6,874 nt of DNA, taken from the IMG/VR virus record IMGVR_UViG_2663763280_000005, positions 1 through 6,874 of that record. One strand, written 5' to 3'. Shown here piece by piece: positions 1-6,874 of the stretch. Positions within the stretch are counted from its first letter, which is position 1. Each line of letters starts with the position of its first letter. The DNA comes from a virus (taxonomy: Duplodnaviria > Heunggongvirae > Uroviricota > Caudoviricetes). Made by a program: the position numbers and the translations under genes. The notes under the pieces were generated by a model. That model was not told where the DNA came from. It searched no databases and saw only the letters and a program-made list of their open reading frames with translations.

Positions 1-1
1 A

Positions 2-234
2 GGTGTTCTGGTTAGAACGGGTGTATTTGGTCAGGTTGTAGATGTCGATACCTGCTTCACCCGGATACATCTCGTCTTCGTTAACTTTGATAACGATACG
101 GGAAGCATCCACGTACTGAACGACACCACCACGTTTAGCTACCGCAGTTACACCGGAGTCAACGGCAACAGCACGTTCCATACCAGTACCAACCAGCGGC
201 TTATCAGCGCGCAGAGTCGGAACGGCCTGACGTT
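2..234 (-). CDS. rpoB: DNA-directed RNA polymerase beta subunit, internal fragment (no start or stop in window)
   Basis: Minus-strand translation reads ...[78 protein letters not shown], which matches my recollection of the conserved central RpoB segment. Homology stops abruptly near 234, where the frame runs into unrelated MFS sequence. Confidence 0.85.
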
Positions 235-438
235 GGCGCCGTGCCGCGTTCTTTTTGTGCATACCAGTCGGTGATCGACTTTACTCCCGCAGGCATAAAT
301 GGCGCTTCGCCAATACCCAGACCGATACGCATTAAAATAAAGTGGCTAAAAGAATTAACCATTCCTGTTAATGCCTGCATTAATGACCAGAATATTAAGC
401 CTGCGCCTAAAACAATTCGTGGGCCAAAGCGGTCTAGC
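235..438 (-). CDS. MFS-superfamily transporter, internal fragment (sugar-acid/anion:cation symporter-like)
   Basis: Minus-strand translation [67 protein letters not shown] carries the MFS loop 2-3 signature (GxGxGEAP...ERG) and resembles E. coli DgoT/GudP-type transporters. It is bounded by the n run on one side and the rpoB junction on the other. Confidence 0.55.
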
Positions 439-456
439 NNNACNGNAANGNNGNNN
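439..456. other. Run of ambiguous bases (n interleaved with a few called bases): assembly gap or low-quality join
   Basis: Sequence is nnnacngnaangnngnnn; different genes on opposite strands lie on either side. Confidence 0.95.
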
Positions 457-724
457 AAGCCGTGGCCTGACCGCATTGTTGATGGCGCTGCTGGCCATTT
501 CATTAAGTCGGGTAAAACCGCGGCAAGGGCGATTTTCAACGTTATTGCCACTGACGTTGCTGTTTATTGCCATTTTTTATGGCGGCGACGTCTGCCGTAC
601 GCTGGTGGCTAACGGCGCGATTCCCCTCATTCCTGGTTTGTGGTTAGTACCCGGACTCATGCTAATGGGCCTGCTGATGCTGGTCGCACGCGACTTCTCT
701 TTGCTGCAGAAATTTTCCCGATGA
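457..724 (+). CDS. LptF/LptG (YjgP/YjgQ) family permease, C-terminal fragment (5' end lost in n run)
   Basis: Translation ...LLMALLAISLSRVKPRQGRFSTLLPLTLLFIAIFYGG...LLQKFSR* aligns by eye with the E. coli LptF C-terminus (...VPLSVVNPRQGRVLSMLPAMLLYLLFF...). The stop overlaps the next start as ATGA (721-724), as in lptF-lptG. Confidence 0.5.
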
Positions 725-1460
725 ATGTTTTCAGTCGCTATTTAATCCGTCATCTCTTTCTCGGTTTTGCCGCCGCCGCAGGGCTATTGCTGCCGCTTTT
801 TACCACCTTCAACCTGATTAACGAACTGGATGATGTCAGCCCGGGCGGTTATCGCTGGACTCAGGCGGTGCTGGTGGTGCTAATGACCTTACCGCGCACA
901 CTGGTCGAACTTTCGCCGTTTATCGCGTTATTGGGTGGTATTGTTGGACTGGGGCAGTTATCGAAAAACAGTGAGCTTACCGCCATTCGCAGCACGGGGT
1001 TTTCTATCTTCCGTATTGCACTGGTGGCGCTGGTTGCCGGGATATTGTGGACTGTTTCGTTAGGCGCGATAGATGAGTGGGTGGCGTCGCCATTGCAGCA
1101 ACAGGCGTTGCAAATCAAATCGACCGCCACCGCGTTGGGGGAGGACGATGATATTACCGGCAATATGCTGTGGGCCAGGCGCGGTAATGAATTTGTGACG
1201 GTGAAATCGCTGAATGAACAGGGCCAGCCTGTGGGCGTGGAGATATTTCATTATCGCGACGATCTCTCGCTCGAATCCTACATTTATGCACGCAGTGCCA
1301 CCATTGAAGACGACAAAACGTGGATTCTGCATGGTGTGAATCATAAAAAATGGCTGAATGGCAAAGAAACGCTGGAAATATTAGATAATCTTGCCTGGCA
1401 ATCGACATTCACCAGTATGAATCTTGAAGAACTGTCGATGCCGGGCAATAGCTTTTCCGT
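721..1460 (+). CDS. LptF/LptG (YjgP/YjgQ) family permease, 3'-truncated
   Basis: ATG at 721. Hydrophobic N-terminal region with the [12 protein letters not shown] motif (compare LptG SELVVMQASGF), followed by a soluble beta-rich domain. The expected C-terminal TM bundle is missing: homology ends near 1460 where the phage terL fragment begins. It is divergent from canonical E. coli LptG, so probably a paralog or from another genus. Confidence 0.55.
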
Positions 1461-1573
1461 TCGTGGCGCTGGCAGGCCTGAATCACAAACTGGCAGGCCA
1501 CAATCTTTCCCCGCACGACATCACGGGCATACTGATTGGCAGCATTTACGTTGGGGTAAGATTTCCGGCTCAT
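1461..1573 (-). pseudogene. Phage terminase large subunit, N-terminal fragment only (~37 codons)
   Basis: ATG at 1573..1571 overlaps the terS stop as ATGA. Translation [37 protein letters not shown] resembles the conserved TerL N-terminus (A.QYA.DV..G.I.AC..V..ACQRHL.DL). Similarity is lost after about codon 37 and the frame stops at codon 55. Confidence 0.4.
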
Positions 1574-2064
1574 GATTCGATGATTTTCAGAAACGGGTTA
1601 GTGGCTTTCTTCTGCCCCGCCAGGCCTATCAGACGCTGGCGGCTGCTGGGGTCGAGTCCGAGCATTGCCCCCGTGCTGCTCATCTCGGACTCCTGTTCTT
1701 TCTTGGCGGTCAGCTCCGGGTTTTTGACCCTGCCGCCCATTGCGCCGGTGATGGTGTTGCCCTGGCTGGCAATATTTTTCACGGCACGTCGCCAGAACTC
1801 ATAGGCCACGCACCACCGCTCAAGTACCGCCAGGTCAGTCACGCACAGCAGGCCCTGACCGCAGAGTTCTTTGGTTGTCAGTTGCCACATGATCGTGGCG
1901 AGAGGGAGATCTTCTTCTGCGAACCACTCCGGTGGCTCAACACCTTTGATGGGCGTAAAAACAGGTTCATCTTTATTCAGGGCTCGCTTGCCGGGGTTTC
2001 CGGCCAGCGCCTTGCGCGCCGTTGGCTTGGGGCGACGCCCGGAACGCCCCGCCGTTCCAGCCAT
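1570..2064 (-). CDS. Phage terminase small subunit (P27 family)
   Basis: Translation [36 protein letters not shown]... is typical of the P27-family TerS N-terminus. AGGAG lies 8 nt upstream of the ATG at 2064. The upstream GTG at 2073 lacks an RBS. Confidence 0.85.
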
Positions 2065-2114
2065 ATGCGGCACTCCTGGTTAAATTTCATTTTTCGCGGG
2101 TATAAAAAAACGAT

Positions 2115-2163
2115 GGGGCGGGCAGTCCGGAAGACGTCAGGTCACAGGGATTTGACCCGCCCC
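2115..2163. repeat. GC-rich inverted-repeat element in the HNH-terS intergenic region; candidate cos (cohesive-end) site
   Basis: ggggcggg (2115-2122) pairs with cccgcccc (2156-2163). Inside are the palindrome gacgtc (2133-2138) and the pair ggtca (2140-2144) / tgacc (2153-2157). In HK97-like phages cos lies between the HNH gene and terS. Confidence 0.3.
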
Positions 2164-2189
2164 TCCCCTCAGACAGTTGAGAATTATTA

Positions 2190-2540
2190 TCACTTCAGCC
2201 GTTCACGGGCCGTCTTCGCCTTATGACACGGCCAGCACAGACTCTGCAGATTACAGTCGGCATCAGTGCCGCCATGCGCTTTAGGGATGATGTGGTCAAC
2301 GGCTTTCGCCTCACGCACCACACCGGCACGCAGACATAACTGACACAGGCCTTTGTCACGCTTCAGGACACGCGCGCGGATACTGTCCCACTTCGAACCG
2401 TAGCCGCGCTGATGACGGGATTGTCTAGGTTTGTATTGCTTCCAGCCTTCGCTTTTGTGGCTTTCGCAGTAGCCTGACGGGTCAGTCGTGGTATGGCGGC
2501 AACCGCGAACACGGCAGGCTTTTGGGATTCGTGGCGGCAT
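2190..2540 (-). CDS. Phage HNH endonuclease (packaging-associated)
   Basis: N-terminal Cys-rich zinc ribbon (CRVRGCRH...YCESH) and HNH core (VDHIIPKAHGGTDADCNLQSLCWPCHKAK). Start assigned to the ATG at 2540 (MPPRIPK), because the longer ORF to 2591 would run through the terminator hairpin. Confidence 0.85.
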   Translation of the reverse strand: MPPRIPKACRVRGCRHTTTDPSGYCESHKSEGWKQYKPRQSRHQRGYGSKWDSIRARVLKRDKGLCQLCLRAGVVREAKAVDHIIPKAHGGTDADCNLQSLCWPCHKAKTARERLK

Positions 2541-2575
2541 TGAAGACTCTCTTTGATGTGCATGTGTGGTGCGCA

Positions 2576-2600
2576 TAAAAAAGCCCCGCATGTGCGAGGC
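2576..2600 (-). terminator. Rho-independent terminator ending the AT-rich three-gene operon
   Basis: Minus-strand RNA is GCCUCGC-ACAU-GCGGGGC followed by UUUUUUA: a 7-bp GC-rich stem with one U-G wobble. On the plus strand the same position is a C-A mismatch, so the hairpin is better on the minus strand. It lies 26 nt downstream of the gene C stop. Confidence 0.6.
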
Positions 2601-2625
2601 TAATGATTTGCATAAATTTGTTGTT

Positions 2626-2928
2626 TCAGTCTAGCTTTATAAGTTTTACGGGTTTCTCGCCTGCTTCTACACACCAGTTGTTGTACTCATGTACAGCTCG
2701 CATCAGCTCACCATCATAGTGACCAACCTTCTCTACAAGGGATGTAAGCGATTGGGGGTTGAATTCAACAATTTCTGGTGGGATGAGGTTTACATTCCCT
2801 TTCTGATGAAGGGCATAGACAGCAGTACGTAAATCACCAATAGCTTTCATTCGTTCAGCATGAAGATCTTTGATCTTTTCATTAAGGATTTTGCAGCGAC
2901 CTATTGCTTCATAATTCAGTTCAGACAT
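2626..2928 (-). CDS. Hypothetical protein, 100 aa (moron operon gene C), no recognised family
   Basis: ATG at 2928 preceded by AGGAGG with a 5-nt spacer. AT-rich codon usage matches genes A and B. Translation MSELNYEAIGRCKILNEKIKDLHAERMKAIGDL... is a soluble, helix-prone sequence. Confidence 0.6.
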   Translation of the reverse strand: MSELNYEAIGRCKILNEKIKDLHAERMKAIGDLRTAVYALHQKGNVNLIPPEIVEFNPQSLTSLVEKVGHYDGELMRAVHEYNNWCVEAGEKPVKLIKLD

Positions 2929-2973
2929 TCTGCCCTCCTATTAAAATTCGTTATCTTTAGAGATAACTCTATA

Positions 2974-3360
2974 TTAAGAATGATTTTCTTTATCCTTAAA
3001 ATAATACCCAATTATAAATCCTAATGAAGTACCAAGGGCAGTAATCATTATTGACAATACCTTTTCCAGCTCGAGTGGCTTTAAATATTGAACGTAATCA
3101 TCAACACCTTTGCTCTTTAACTCTAAAGCCCAATTCACAACAGAATTATTATACCAAAGAACAAAAAGACAGCTAAAAATAAGAAGGCAAAAAAAGAACC
3201 AGAGAAACGTAATAGTTAAGGCGCTTCGTGTTTTACCATCAGTATGCTTAGAGTTAACAGCATTTTCCTCTGCTTTTCCAGCTGACTCTTCAATTTTTTT
3301 ATTTTCGATCCTGGCTACTTTTAATCTATCAAGGATGCTTCCAACATCTTCAATCGACAT
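2974..3360 (-). CDS. Hypothetical small membrane protein, 128 aa, two predicted TM helices (moron operon gene B)
   Basis: ATG at 3360 preceded by GGGAGGG 7 nt upstream. It overlaps the gene A stop by 11 nt. Hydrophobic stretches are ALTITFLWFFFCLLIFSCLFVLWY and VLSIMITALGTSLGFIIGYYF. The ORF-track start (TTG at 3378) is less likely. Confidence 0.6.
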   Translation of the reverse strand: MSIEDVGSILDRLKVARIENKKIEESAGKAEENAVNSKHTDGKTRSALTITFLWFFFCLLIFSCLFVLWYNNSVVNWALELKSKGVDDYVQYLKPLELEKVLSIMITALGTSLGFIIGYYFKDKENHS

Positions 3361-3661
3361 TTGAATTCCCTCCCGCAATTTTAGATAAGGAGTTCATAGC
3401 CTCAACATAGTCTGAACTTAAAGACTCATTATATTTTTCAATACTCGAAATTCCATTTTTCACAACTGGGCTAATTTTTATGTAGAGAGCAACCTGTCCT
3501 TTTTCAAACTCAGAGAGATTATCACCAGAGTTTTTGCGGATATCCTCAATTGAGTTCAATAGCTCTGTAATAAGAACCATGTGAGCATCAGCCATCGCAG
3601 CAGATGCTGCTCTGAACTCCGCAATCTTTTCAATAGCTTGTTTGATTTTTATGTTTGACAT
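3350..3661 (-). CDS. Hypothetical protein, 103 aa (moron operon gene A), no recognised family
   Basis: ATG at 3661 preceded by GGAGA 6 nt upstream. Translation MSNIKIKQAIEKIAEFRAASAAMADAHMVLITELLNSIEDIRKNSG... is soluble and helix-prone. It is the first gene downstream of an AT-rich non-coding leader. Confidence 0.6.
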   Translation of the reverse strand: MSNIKIKQAIEKIAEFRAASAAMADAHMVLITELLNSIEDIRKNSGDNLSEFEKGQVALYIKISPVVKNGISSIEKYNESLSSDYVEAMNSLSKIAGGNSNVD

Positions 3662-3922
3662 ATTATCTCCATCATATAATGTTCATATTCTCTCACTTAT
3701 CATCAAAAATGACAAGCTAAGGGAACCACTTAATTTATATGTGGAAAGAATGATTAAATTTTTCAATCTTAATATATACATCACATCAATTATTAAAAGT
3801 AACAAAACACTTGTCTACTTATAACTTTATTGTTTTTCATATTTAGGTAAGCATGAGCAATAATTATATCGTATTCTGTGTGGTATATTATATTCATCTA
3901 CTAACAAGAAAAATATACCACT
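3662..3922 (-). promoter_or_regulatory. AT-rich non-coding leader; probable promoter/operator region for the three-gene operon
   Basis: About 260 nt with no convincing ORF and several TATA-like hexamers on the minus strand. Contains a 9-bp perfect inverted repeat, gtggtatat (3880-3888) / atataccac (3913-3921). I could not pin down a single -35/-10 pair. Confidence 0.3.
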
Positions 3923-4193
3923 TCAAATTGTACGTTTGTATTTCTTATGCATACCGCGCTCAACAGAGTCACCAGGAATATGGTTAATAGTCTGCTGTAT
4001 ATTTCTGGCCTCTTCCGTTGCCTCTACACGGTGTCCTGCTGCTGAGTGCTTAGCCGCTGCGTTAACTTCAGTGTATAACAGAGCAGTTTTAACCTCTTCT
4101 TTTACTAGTGCCACGGATACGCCCTAGGCCAACAACTCCAGCGATAACAGTGATAACCAAAGCAACCAGTCCAATAAATCTTTCGATACTCAT
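3923..4193 (-). pseudogene. Possible frameshifted gene for a small membrane-anchored protein (two overlapping frames)
   Basis: ATG at 4193 gives MSIERFIGLVALVITVIAGVVGLGRIRGTSKRRG* (stop 4091..4089). A +1 frame opens 4 codons before the track's GTG at 4114 and gives ...ALVKEEVKTALLYTEVNAAAKHSAAGHRVEATEEARNIQQTINHIPGDSVERGMHKKYKRTI* (to 3923). One indel near 4110-4125 would fuse them into a protein of about 90 aa with an N-terminal TM anchor. No clear SD precedes the ATG at 4193. Confidence 0.3.
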
Positions 4194-4270
4194 TGCATCA
4201 GAACAGATTTTGCCAAATTAACAGAACGGGCGTGGTATAACACTTCGAAAACACGATCAATCTGCCTCTT

Positions 4271-4708
4271 TTAATTCATGCATTGAGTTCTGATGTATTC
4301 CTGTAGGTAATTAACCTGTGCGGTTATCCTGTCGATTCCACTTCGGAGACGGTAATAATTGAATTCAGCATCTGCTGTAAGTCCTGGGCTTTCTCCATCG
4401 CCCATGCCGCTGGCTCTGGTCGTTGATTTTGCACAGGTGGCGGCGACTTGCAGGCGCTTACGCCCAGAAGAAACATCAGCACGGAGACTTTCGATAGTCG
4501 CGTTAGCATCAGCAAGCTCCTTTGTGTATCTGGCGTCGAGTTCTGCTACATCACGTTGACGCTTCTGCATATCAGCGATGATGGATGTGGCTTTATCGCG
4601 CTGTTCTTTGTAGGTAATGGCGTTATCACGGTAATGATTAACAGCCCATGACAGGCAGACGATGATGCAGATAACAAGAGCGGAGATAATCGCGGTGACT
4701 CTGCTCAT
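4271..4708 (-). CDS. Rz: Spanin inner-membrane subunit (i-spanin) Rz
   Basis: N-terminus [34 protein letters not shown] matches lambda Rz as I recall it. ATG overlaps the R stop as ATGA (4705-4708). The C-terminal half diverges from lambda Rz. Confidence 0.9.
4324..4515 (-). CDS. Rz1: Spanin outer-membrane lipoprotein (o-spanin) Rz1, embedded in the +1 frame of Rz
   Basis: Translation [22 protein letters not shown]|[13 protein letters not shown]... has a signal peptide, a lipobox (LLGVSAC) and a proline-rich mature region, and lies wholly inside Rz in a different frame, as with lambda Rz1. Confidence 0.7.
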
Positions 4709-5181
4709 GCCTCAATCTCTCTTACCGTTCCGCCAGCTTCTTTGAATTTTGCAATCAGGCTGTCAGCCTTATGCTCGAACTGACCGTAACCAGCCCCCGG
4801 CAGTGAAGCCCAGATATTGCTGCAACGGTCGATAGCCTGACGAATATCGCCGCGATCAATCATTGGTAAAGCGCCACGCTCTTTAATCTGCTGCAGCGCA
4901 ACAGCATCCTGGCTTTTCGGAGAGAAGTCTTTCAGGCCAAGCTGCTTACGGTAGGCATCCCACCAACGGGAAAGAAGCTGGTAGCGTCCGGCGGCTGTTG
5001 ATTTGAGTTTGGGGTTTAGCGTGACAAGTTTGCGAGGGTGATCGGAGTAATCAGTGAAGAGTTCACCACCGACAATAACGTCATAACCGTGGTTACGTGT
5101 CGGTTGTCGTCCGTTATCCGTTCCTTCTGACCAAGCCACCATATCAAGGAAAGCTTTACGCTGGGAATTTAGTACCTGCAT
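4705..5181 (-). CDS. R: Endolysin, lambda R-type lytic transglycosylase
   Basis: The 158-aa product [61 protein letters not shown]... is near-identical to lambda R ([42 protein letters not shown]...). AAGGAG lies 6 nt upstream of the ATG at 5181. Confidence 0.95.
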
Positions 5182-5184
5182 AAA

Positions 5185-5511
5185 TTACTCCTTAGAGCCA
5201 CCAAATTTGTTACCGATTACTCGCATTGCAGCCCCACGAATAGCATCGACACCGATCAGCCCCACCCCACCACCAATGGCAACAGAAAGTGATTTAGGCC
5301 ATCCGACATACTCAAGAGCGGATGCAAAGGTCAGCGTCAGAGCGCCACATAGCAAAATCTCAAGCGTTTTTCGCTTCCAGCCACCACCACCGCCAAAATA
5401 GGCGATGCGCAAACCAGCCATAACGATCGACATAATCACTGCGCCCAGCGGTGTGTCTCCACGCCACCAGCTCTGGACCAACTCCAACCAGGTATTTGGG
5501 TTATGAGGCAT
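5185..5511 (-). CDS. Holin (three-TM class I, lambda S-like architecture)
   Basis: 108 aa directly upstream of the endolysin, with a 3-nt gap. Three hydrophobic segments (PLGAVIMSIVMAGLRIAYF, LEILLCGALTLTFASALEYVG, LSVAIGGGVGLIGVDAI) and a charged C-terminal tail. There is no dual-start motif: the in-frame upstream codons are Q, L, stop. Confidence 0.75.
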   Translation of the reverse strand: MPHNPNTWLELVQSWWRGDTPLGAVIMSIVMAGLRIAYFGGGGGWKRKTLEILLCGALTLTFASALEYVGWPKSLSVAIGGGVGLIGVDAIRGAAMRVIGNKFGGSKE

Positions 5512-5650
5512 TTGTAGTTATCTCTCACCTCGCTGATACAGCAGGTGCAAATTGAGGGAACATCATGTACCGCAAATCAGAAGCGGAAACGTCAAAGAAG
5601 CCGAACCAATGGATAACTGCGGAATAGGCCAGAACCAACGAATCCCCAGC

Positions 5651-5684
5651 CCCAGAAACGACAAAACCCGCTCGACGCGGGTTT
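5651..5684 (-). terminator. Intrinsic terminator-like hairpin upstream of the holin (tR'-like late terminator candidate)
   Basis: Perfect 8-bp stem aaacccgc (5664-5671) / gcgggttt (5677-5684) with loop tcgac. On the minus-strand RNA it is followed by UUUUGUCGUUUCU (5663..5651). On the plus strand the T tract is shorter (tttaag). Confidence 0.45.
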
Positions 5685-5800
5685 AAGCTGTGTGGCGAAG
5701 TAACCACTCTTAACAGATTATGATAGTTTTTGCGTACGCGTTAGTAATTTATTATGCTCTTTACAATTGTTAGCTTAACCGCATGGAATTGACCAAAAAA

Positions 5801-6720
5801 ATGAGCAAAGTAAGCATACGCCACGTAATCGTTCATGAGCTCTTAAAAGAATCTAATAAAGACTTCGATCACTCCAAACCATACAATCTTCGTGATACAG
5901 AACTAGATAAAACAAATGATATAGTAAAAAAATTAGTAGACGGTGTTATTGATTTGTATGGTTCAAAAGGGAACTCAGCGCATTATGGTGTTTTTATTAA
6001 AAATAAAACAAAGCAAGGCCCTATACCAGAACTATTTCATAAATACTCTTTAGTTCAACAATCTGTTTCAAGTGATTTCATTGAATTATCGAAGGAAGTT
6101 ATGAAACAAATGTATAAATCTGCTCAAGAGCAGATTTGGGCTTCTGGAGGATATGTTGTTTTTACTGATTATATTTTATCTGGTTTCCGTTATCTATTGG
6201 TTACAATGATCAAAAAAACTAATGGCGTAACTATTAGTGAAAATTTAGAGCCAGAGGAAATGATTCACTTAGAACTTGGTAATATTAACCAAGCAGCAAA
6301 AATAAATTTCAGATATTATGAAGAATACCAAAAAGCAGATGACTTAAAAAAAACAGACTTAAGTTATCTAAGCTTTATAAGCAAAACTACGGGACAGTCA
6401 GCGGCAGCATATTTTATAGCAGCATTAGGATGTGACAAGGGGATTGCTTCAGCAGGTGCAACCCGTAAGTTACCAGATGAAATAAGGCGTTTCTTTAAGA
6501 AAGAACCTCTTTTAAAAAATCAAGCAGAGTCATTTAGAAATGATGTTATCAAATACTTAGAAAAGCAATTTGACAACGAGCACTCTGCAAGGCTTTCTGA
6601 TATCGAATCGCTTGCTTCAGGCCATATGTCCGATTTAAAAGAGGAAGAAAAAACAGAACTTGTTGATAAATTAATGAAACACCTCAATAGTGAGGAAGTC
6701 AGAATCCCATCAGAGTTCGT
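5801..6720 (+). CDS. NA37/NdpA (YejK) family nucleoid-associated protein, divergent low-GC paralog; 3' end uncertain
   Basis: From the ATG at 5801 the translation MSKVSIRHVIVHELLKE...ASGGYVVFTDYILSGFRYLLVTMIKK...YLSFISKTTGQSAAAYFIAALG aligns by eye with E. coli YejK/NdpA (MSLDINQIALHQLIKRDE...[25 protein letters not shown]...[22 protein letters not shown]). The true C-terminus is obscured, because the open frame runs through n 6723 into unrelated sequence. Confidence 0.6.
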
Positions 6721-6723
6721 AAN

Positions 6724-6873
6724 AGTAAATTGCCCTGCGACGGGTCAAAAGCATTCAGCCCCCAAATGCGTAAGTCTGGCCTGTTCCGCACTCAACTACG
6801 GGCGATTTTGCGCGCTGCCAGTTTTGGCAACGCCCAGTTGATGATCCCGATGGTTCACAGCCTCGATCAGATC
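6724..6873 (+). CDS. PEP-utilising enzyme (PTS enzyme I family) internal fragment
   Basis: Translation in the frame of the codon at 6781 gives ...[32 protein letters not shown], which resembles PtsI ...[30 protein letters not shown]. It is a family member, not PtsI itself. It runs off the window end. Confidence 0.5.
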
Positions 6874-6874
6874 T

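Follow-up and report, generated by a model that had tools for sequence, protein, structure and literature searches.

At position 1464 of the 6,874-bp stretch of DNA analysed here (the window), a prophage ends about 37 codons into terL, the gene for the large terminase subunit, and continues mid-gene into an LptG-like gene on the opposite strand. This raises the question of whether the join is a genuine chromosomal structure, left by recombination or deletion, or a product of library preparation or assembly. The window is an entire draft contig, CCCB01000725.1, from the low-quality assembly GCA_000945835.1.

The join is clean and lies inside two genes

Three-way alignment of the window with its two parent sequences pinned the join to the base (J3; the joins are numbered J1 to J5 along the window). 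Identity to the parents drops from ~100% to random exactly at 1464|1465, and the overlap consists of t1464 alone, the one base common to the lptG and terL parents. The parent of window 457-1464 is the lptF-lptG locus of strain 504838 (reference L002; 98.6% identity), and window 1464-5750 is 96% identical to a lambdoid prophage of strain PapRG-04-4 (reference L001). J3 is thus a deterministic sequence feature in which statistics are not involved. The breakpoints of ~1460-1463 given in the initial annotation lie within 1-4 nt of this position. The features around the join are:

457..724, plus strand: 3' end of an accessory lptF paralogue, entered mid-gene (98.6% identity to L002)
721..1464, plus strand: accessory LptG paralogue, codons 1-248 of 359 (L002 match, Pfam)
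1464..1465, no strand: J3, clean lptG'/terL' join (three-way parent alignment)
1465..1575, plus strand: tail of the fusion ORF, 36 codons antisense to terL and a stop (no homology of its own)
1464..1573, minus strand: first 110 nt (37 codons) of terL, SfV/SfI/SfII type (99% to phage terL 5' ends)
1570..2064, minus strand: terS, P27-family small terminase subunit (Pfam Terminase_4, E=1e-20)

The initial annotation had seen no IS element, att site or tRNA at the join and had concluded that this is not a normal prophage boundary. Both statements hold. Searches of the window found no tRNA, its ORFs include no integrase or IS ORF, and no repeat flanks the break, which falls inside terL codon 37. 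Repeats across J3 do not exceed chance, and those near the join (10-16 nt) are at chance level. One 10-mer lying across J3, GTGGCGCTGG, has a second copy at 1024, away from the lptG breakpoint; chance alone would give ~0.7 pairs of this kind in 1.2 kb. With no tRNA and only chance-level repeats near the join, we rejected a boundary formed by an att site, IS element or tRNA.

The interrupted lptG is an accessory paralogue

In L002, lptF occupies 795-1865, and the window match begins at L002 1598. The intact reference lptG has 1080 nt (359 codons); the match to the window stops 744 nt in, after ...NSFSVR. The part kept encodes TM1-3 and most of the periplasmic domain, while the C-terminal TM segments are gone. 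Together with the antisense tail, the fusion ORF encodes a product of 284 aa. This product belongs to the LptF/LptG permease family (Pfam LptF_LptG, PF03739; 150.6 bits against a cut-off of 27.9) with the profile covered in part, at positions 1-254 of 353 only; the intact paralogue spans positions 1-352. Consistent with the initial annotation, the LptG-family ORF is therefore broken before its C-terminal TM bundle, the match ending at codon 248 of 359.

The label 'LptG-like' was also apt: this is an accessory paralogue, distinct from the essential lptG. Essential LptG (yjgQ), a component of LptB2FG, is encoded at the pepA-lptF-lptG locus; the gene in the window is not universal, belongs to another locus and scores 144 bits against solved enterobacterial LptG. 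The accessory lptFG locus is the yghS-yghO island, with the order YtfJ, LptF, LptG, serine palmitoyltransferase (spt), ACP, epimerase and fatty acyl-AMP ligase (L006 14715-24560). The lptG half (1360-1464) is one of the two parts of a junction probe that matches 1,385 of 5,426 complete E. coli genomes. Alignment of the intact paralogue with solved LptG of the LptB2FG transporter (PDB 6MHU, 6S8N, 5X5Y) extends over 3-351, and the two have the Pfam LptF_LptG fold in common. Unlike canonical LptG, the gene described here is an island paralogue beside serine palmitoyltransferase, occurs in about a quarter of E. coli genomes and is cut at codon 248.

RefSeq labels the accessory paralogues lptF and lptG regardless. 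The yghS-yghO island has the look of a module for making and exporting sphingolipid-like lipids.

A terL stub adjoins a collinear prophage block

Intact terL in references L001 and L003 has 1734 nt and encodes 577 aa, of which the window retains 110 nt. The TerL peptide kept comprises residues 1-37, ending in ...ACQRH as the initial annotation had read it, and lies upstream of the ATPase domain. Intact homologues carry the ATPase domain at 86-256 (PF03354) and the nuclease domain at 268-558 (PF20441); the 54-aa TerL stub ORF has no Pfam match, and thus neither domain was detected. The ATGA overlap described earlier between terS and terL was readily seen: the plus strand reads tcat at 1570-1573, which gives ATGA on the minus strand, where the terS stop overlaps the terL start. 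The phage is of SfV/HK97 type: HNH, terS and terL follow one another as in SfV/SfI/SfII/HK97-type cos phages, and SfV, SfI and SfII match the 5' end of terL at 99% identity. In contrast to SfV/HK97-type phages, the window keeps just 37 of the 577 TerL codons. Beyond terS, the prophage block comprises:

2190..2540, minus strand: phage HNH endonuclease (Pfam HNH, E=2.7e-14)
2626..4114, minus strand: AT-rich small phage ORFs of unknown function, 100, 128, 103 and 63 aa (PHROG 4827, 20796, 21707, 1026)
4271..5511, minus strand: lysis cassette of Rz, Rz1, endolysin and holin (Pfam, PHROG, annotation)
4271-4708, minus strand: Rz
4324-4515, minus strand: Rz1-type o-spanin, 63 aa, lipobox LGVSAC, in the +1 frame inside Rz (phrog_3198, E=2e-28)
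4705-5181, minus strand: endolysin
5185-5511, minus strand: lambda-family holin
5783..6722, plus strand: phage-borne NA37 nucleoid-associated protein (NAP) gene, interrupted by J4 near codon 313 of 382 (PHROG 3767)

The small-ORF block (~2600-4250; GC 27-37%) is collinear with the PapRG-04-4 prophage, and window 5663-6722 is 99.6% identical to L003. The intact homologue of the last gene matches Pfam NA37. The prophage block as a whole is collinear with known prophages, so J3 is the sole unnatural join inside 457-6722.

The AT-rich small ORFs, extending from HNH to Rz, occupy an unusual place between the lysis and packaging modules. Three of them are conserved: the 100-aa and 103-aa ORFs, which correspond to phrog_4827 and phrog_21707, respectively, and the 128-aa ORF, whose product is a membrane protein (phrog_20796) that PADLOC 2TM_IV matches weakly (E=0.003). 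The 63-aa ORF has a partial Rz-like spanin match. Rz1 embedded in Rz is the ordinary lambda-like arrangement. The NA37 (NdpA-like) gene has 32% GC and is divergent from the holin. The PapRG-04-4 prophage has a KAP NTPase in its place, and strain 1008S13 has a DNA methyltransferase in addition, marking the position as a variable cargo slot.

The contig is a patchwork of unlinked loci

The initial annotation had treated J3 as a single odd prophage boundary. This did not survive comparison with the 5,426 complete E. coli genomes, which revealed at least four more mid-gene joins in the contig, two of them flagged by Ns. The window consists of seven segments, from six chromosomal loci and the prophage, in the order rpoB / MFS / N-rich zone / lptF-lptG' / prophage / N / menF / ptsP. 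The pieces are 96-100% identical to their respective parents and each is cut mid-gene, with rpoB, MFS, lptF, lptG, terL, NAP, menF and ptsP all interrupted internally. There are five mid-gene joins in 6.9 kb, and their partners lie far apart in complete genomes; no locus in the 5,426 genomes covers at least 80% of the window or of the junction probes. The segments and joins outside 457-6722 are:

1..235, minus strand: internal fragment of rpoB (100% to rpoB of many genomes, over 1-235 only)
235/236: J1, rpoB/MFS, clean, 0 bp overlap
236..438, minus strand: internal fragment of an MFS transporter gene, native locus by manD (98.5% to the MFS gene of strain PAR)
439..456, no strand: J2, MFS/lptF, N-rich zone nnnacngnaangnngnnn, in which all 7 called bases match the lptF parent
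6719-6723: J4, NAP/menF, with 'gtaa' common to both and an N at 6723
6719..6776, minus strand: internal fragment of menF, 58 nt (sequence match)
6776: J5, menF/ptsP, clean, 1 bp overlap
6776..6874, plus strand: internal fragment of ptsP, 99 nt (sequence match)

The joins fall into two classes: J1, J3 and J5 are clean (0-1 bp), and J2 and J4 are N-flagged. J1 and J5 sit in read-sized terminal scraps of 438 nt and ~156 nt. Because rpoB is an essential gene, the 235-nt rpoB piece cannot be the cell's single copy, and J1 cannot be a real single-copy structure.

A second contig carries the identical join

Among all indexed assemblies, the 284-aa fusion protein occurs on two NCBI contigs only. An exact search with it returned, besides the window, CDRT01000207.1 (7,810 bp; L004) from assembly GCA_001373215.1. 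Positions 3167-5166 of this contig are identical to window 457-2456 but for two Ns, and J3 lies at its position 4174. Upstream of J3, the contig runs collinear with strain M8 over 4,174 bp (99.95% identity), with the island uninterrupted. Downstream, 993 bp of phage sequence lead to an N-flagged join to infB, followed by further unrelated pieces:

5162-5327 of CDRT01000207.1: internal fragment of infB, 166 nt, an essential gene, with a clean 1-bp join to pdxY-tyrS
6916-6925 of CDRT01000207.1: N zone after pdxY-tyrS
6926-7810 of CDRT01000207.1: unrelated AT-rich end with a fragment of a Bac_export_2 (FlhB/EscU-like) gene

The second assembly is therefore pervasively chimeric too. Both contigs place unlinked segments next to one another and break them at arbitrary points within genes, including rpoB in the window and infB in CDRT01000207.1. 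The two N-flagged joins open to comparison are not common to both contigs: J2 is not in CDRT01000207.1 and the phage/infB join is not in the window, while J3 is present in both and is to this extent reproduced between assemblies. The N-free flanks of J3 measure 1.0 and 5.3 kb in the window and 4.2 and 1.0 kb in CDRT01000207.1. An exact search with the rpoB/MFS chimeric ORF found the window alone and so yielded no obviously artefactual join common to the two assemblies.

Over 2 kb the two contigs have one and the same sequence, a variable phage segment included, and they display the same unusual style of artefact. This points to a common strain and a common laboratory or pipeline for both assemblies, possibly to the same library or reads. 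With independent libraries, recurrence of a random chimera would be impossible, and J3 must then have existed in the template DNA. A literature search for both assembly accessions returned nothing relevant.

Ns are interspersed at four joins (window 439-456 and 6723; CDRT01000207.1 5156, 5160 and 6916-6925), and the bases called within these zones always match one parent. We considered the N zones as a simple consensus of two overlapping parents and rejected this, since J2 has N even at some positions where the parents agree.

The join is absent from complete genomes

The initial annotation had proposed a BLAST search with ~200 nt across the join. With a 201-nt probe, none of the 5,426 complete E. 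coli genomes contained the sequence contiguously, the two halves matching separately, and it was likewise unspanned in 50,697 phage records and 72,556 plasmid records. An exact 40-mer over J3 was absent from GTDB representative genomes and JGI metagenomes, and the 284-aa fusion protein was absent from indexed Logan and ENA assemblies. The terS segment is present in 1,119 complete genomes, with a terminase large subunit annotated adjacent to it in 39 of the 40 records listed. In complete genomes, terS-terL occupies varied positions and never adjoins the yghS-yghO island.

The closest complete genome is that of strain M8. Downstream of its lptG paralogue lie spt, the glc operon, sslE, T2SS genes and a pheV-type island, the pheV-proximal element being a pathogenicity-type island; the annotation of this stretch of ~65 kb includes no structural or lysis gene of a phage. 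The prophage part of the window resembles DLP12-like cryptic prophages, which likewise keep the Q side, lysis cassette, terS and a 5' stub of terL and have lost the head and tail genes. Such remnants are stable in relatives and have recognizable integration sites, whereas J3 occurs in 0 of 5,426 complete genomes and joins the prophage to a locus that has no prophage nearby in M8.

Origin of the join

We consider it fairly likely that the lptG'/terL' join at 1464 is a chimera of library preparation or assembly, and J3 is probably not part of a bacterial chromosome. Chimeric draft contigs typically combine unlinked loci, mid-gene breaks that include essential genes, overlaps of 0-1 bp, Ns and read-sized ends, all of which are seen here. 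The blunt 0-1-bp signature of J3 is the same as that of J1 and J5 in the window and of infB/pdxY in CDRT01000207.1. Artefactual joins occur at ~1 per 2 kb in both contigs, a density far above any plausible for real rearrangement breakpoints. The chimeras may have arisen by blunt ligation followed by greedy assembly: sheared, end-repaired fragments would be ligated together before adaptor ligation or cloning, giving chimeric reads or inserts, and clean 0-1-bp joins such as J1, J3 and J5 would be the expected mark of this reaction. The N-flagged J2 and J4 have the appearance of contig-end merges or scaffold joins. As J3 belongs to the clean class, lptG and terL are probably both intact in the organism; the chimera would then account for both the 284-aa LptG fusion ORF and the 54-aa TerL stub. 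Unlike a random chimeric contig, J3 recurs in a second deposited assembly, which is unusual unless a library or read set is shared; the second assembly may have acquired J3 in this way.

Two other technical routes were rejected. Ligation at restriction sites, as in a Hi-C or partial-digest library, does not fit because the parents at J1 and J3 have no common site by eye, and a repeat-induced de Bruijn misjoin does not fit because the parents have 1 bp in common at J3.

The same recurrence is what gives weight to the main alternative, that J3 is a real chromosomal junction in one strain or lineage, formed by illegitimate, microhomology-independent (1-bp) recombination between lptG and terL. Such an event would be a large inversion or translocation that inactivated lptG and terL and left the prophage packaging-defective and locked in place; the remaining joins of the contigs would be unrelated assembly artefacts, and the event would have been sampled twice, in poor draft assemblies only. 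J3 and its identical flanks do appear in two assemblies whose N-flagged joins differ, and in both contigs the join is N-free and inside long contiguous sequence rather than in a read-sized scrap. Both cut genes are dispensable, one being an accessory lptG paralogue and the other a prophage terL, and truncated terminase genes are well known from cryptic prophages: DLP12 of E. coli K-12 carries nohD and a terminase-large-subunit pseudogene. However, J3 is found in none of the 5,426 complete genomes and in no other indexed assembly, it shares its blunt signature with the rpoB and infB joins, which are impossible as single-copy structures, and it sits in contigs with an artefactual join about every 2 kb. 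On balance we regard a real junction of this kind as rather unlikely.

A second alternative is a simple deletion scar: a prophage would first have sat a little way downstream of the lptG paralogue, its late genes facing that side, and a single deletion would then have removed the sequence from lptG codon 249 through host genes to terL codon 37. The orientations fit: lptG reads along the plus strand, and the minus strand carries the Q side, the lysis genes, terS and terL. The host genes that follow the island downstream (spt, the glc operon, sslE and the T2SS genes) are non-essential. Against this, the M8 annotation lists no structural or lysis gene of a phage over the next 65 kb, terS-terL never adjoins the island in complete genomes, and the objections to a real junction apply here as well. 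We therefore disfavour a local deletion beside the island and hold a deletion scar to be very improbable. The initial annotation had offered two origins, a deletion scar and a join that is artificial or misassembled; the second is the one favoured, the simple local deletion being at odds with M8 and with the lack of the join in any complete genome.

Consequences for the use of both assemblies

The finding matters mainly as quality control. GCA_000945835.1 and GCA_001373215.1 are probably both rich in mid-gene chimeric joins, and fusions, truncations, 'prophage boundaries' and gene neighbourhoods read from either should not be trusted. The 284-aa LptG fusion 'protein' in protein collections is probably spurious. 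As an artefact, J3 would not be a biological feature at all; as a real junction, it would add one ordinary case to the well-known decay of prophages through illegitimate recombination.

Other short members of the LptG cluster (255-287 aa) were considered as relatives of the J3 fusion and rejected, as their tails are native or frameshifted LptG and none is a terL-antisense tail. Truncated or frameshifted accessory LptG of 279-287 aa (cluster P0010, P0013) is also encoded on long contigs of up to 714 kb, which suggests that the accessory LptG paralogue is decaying naturally in some lineages, independently of J3.
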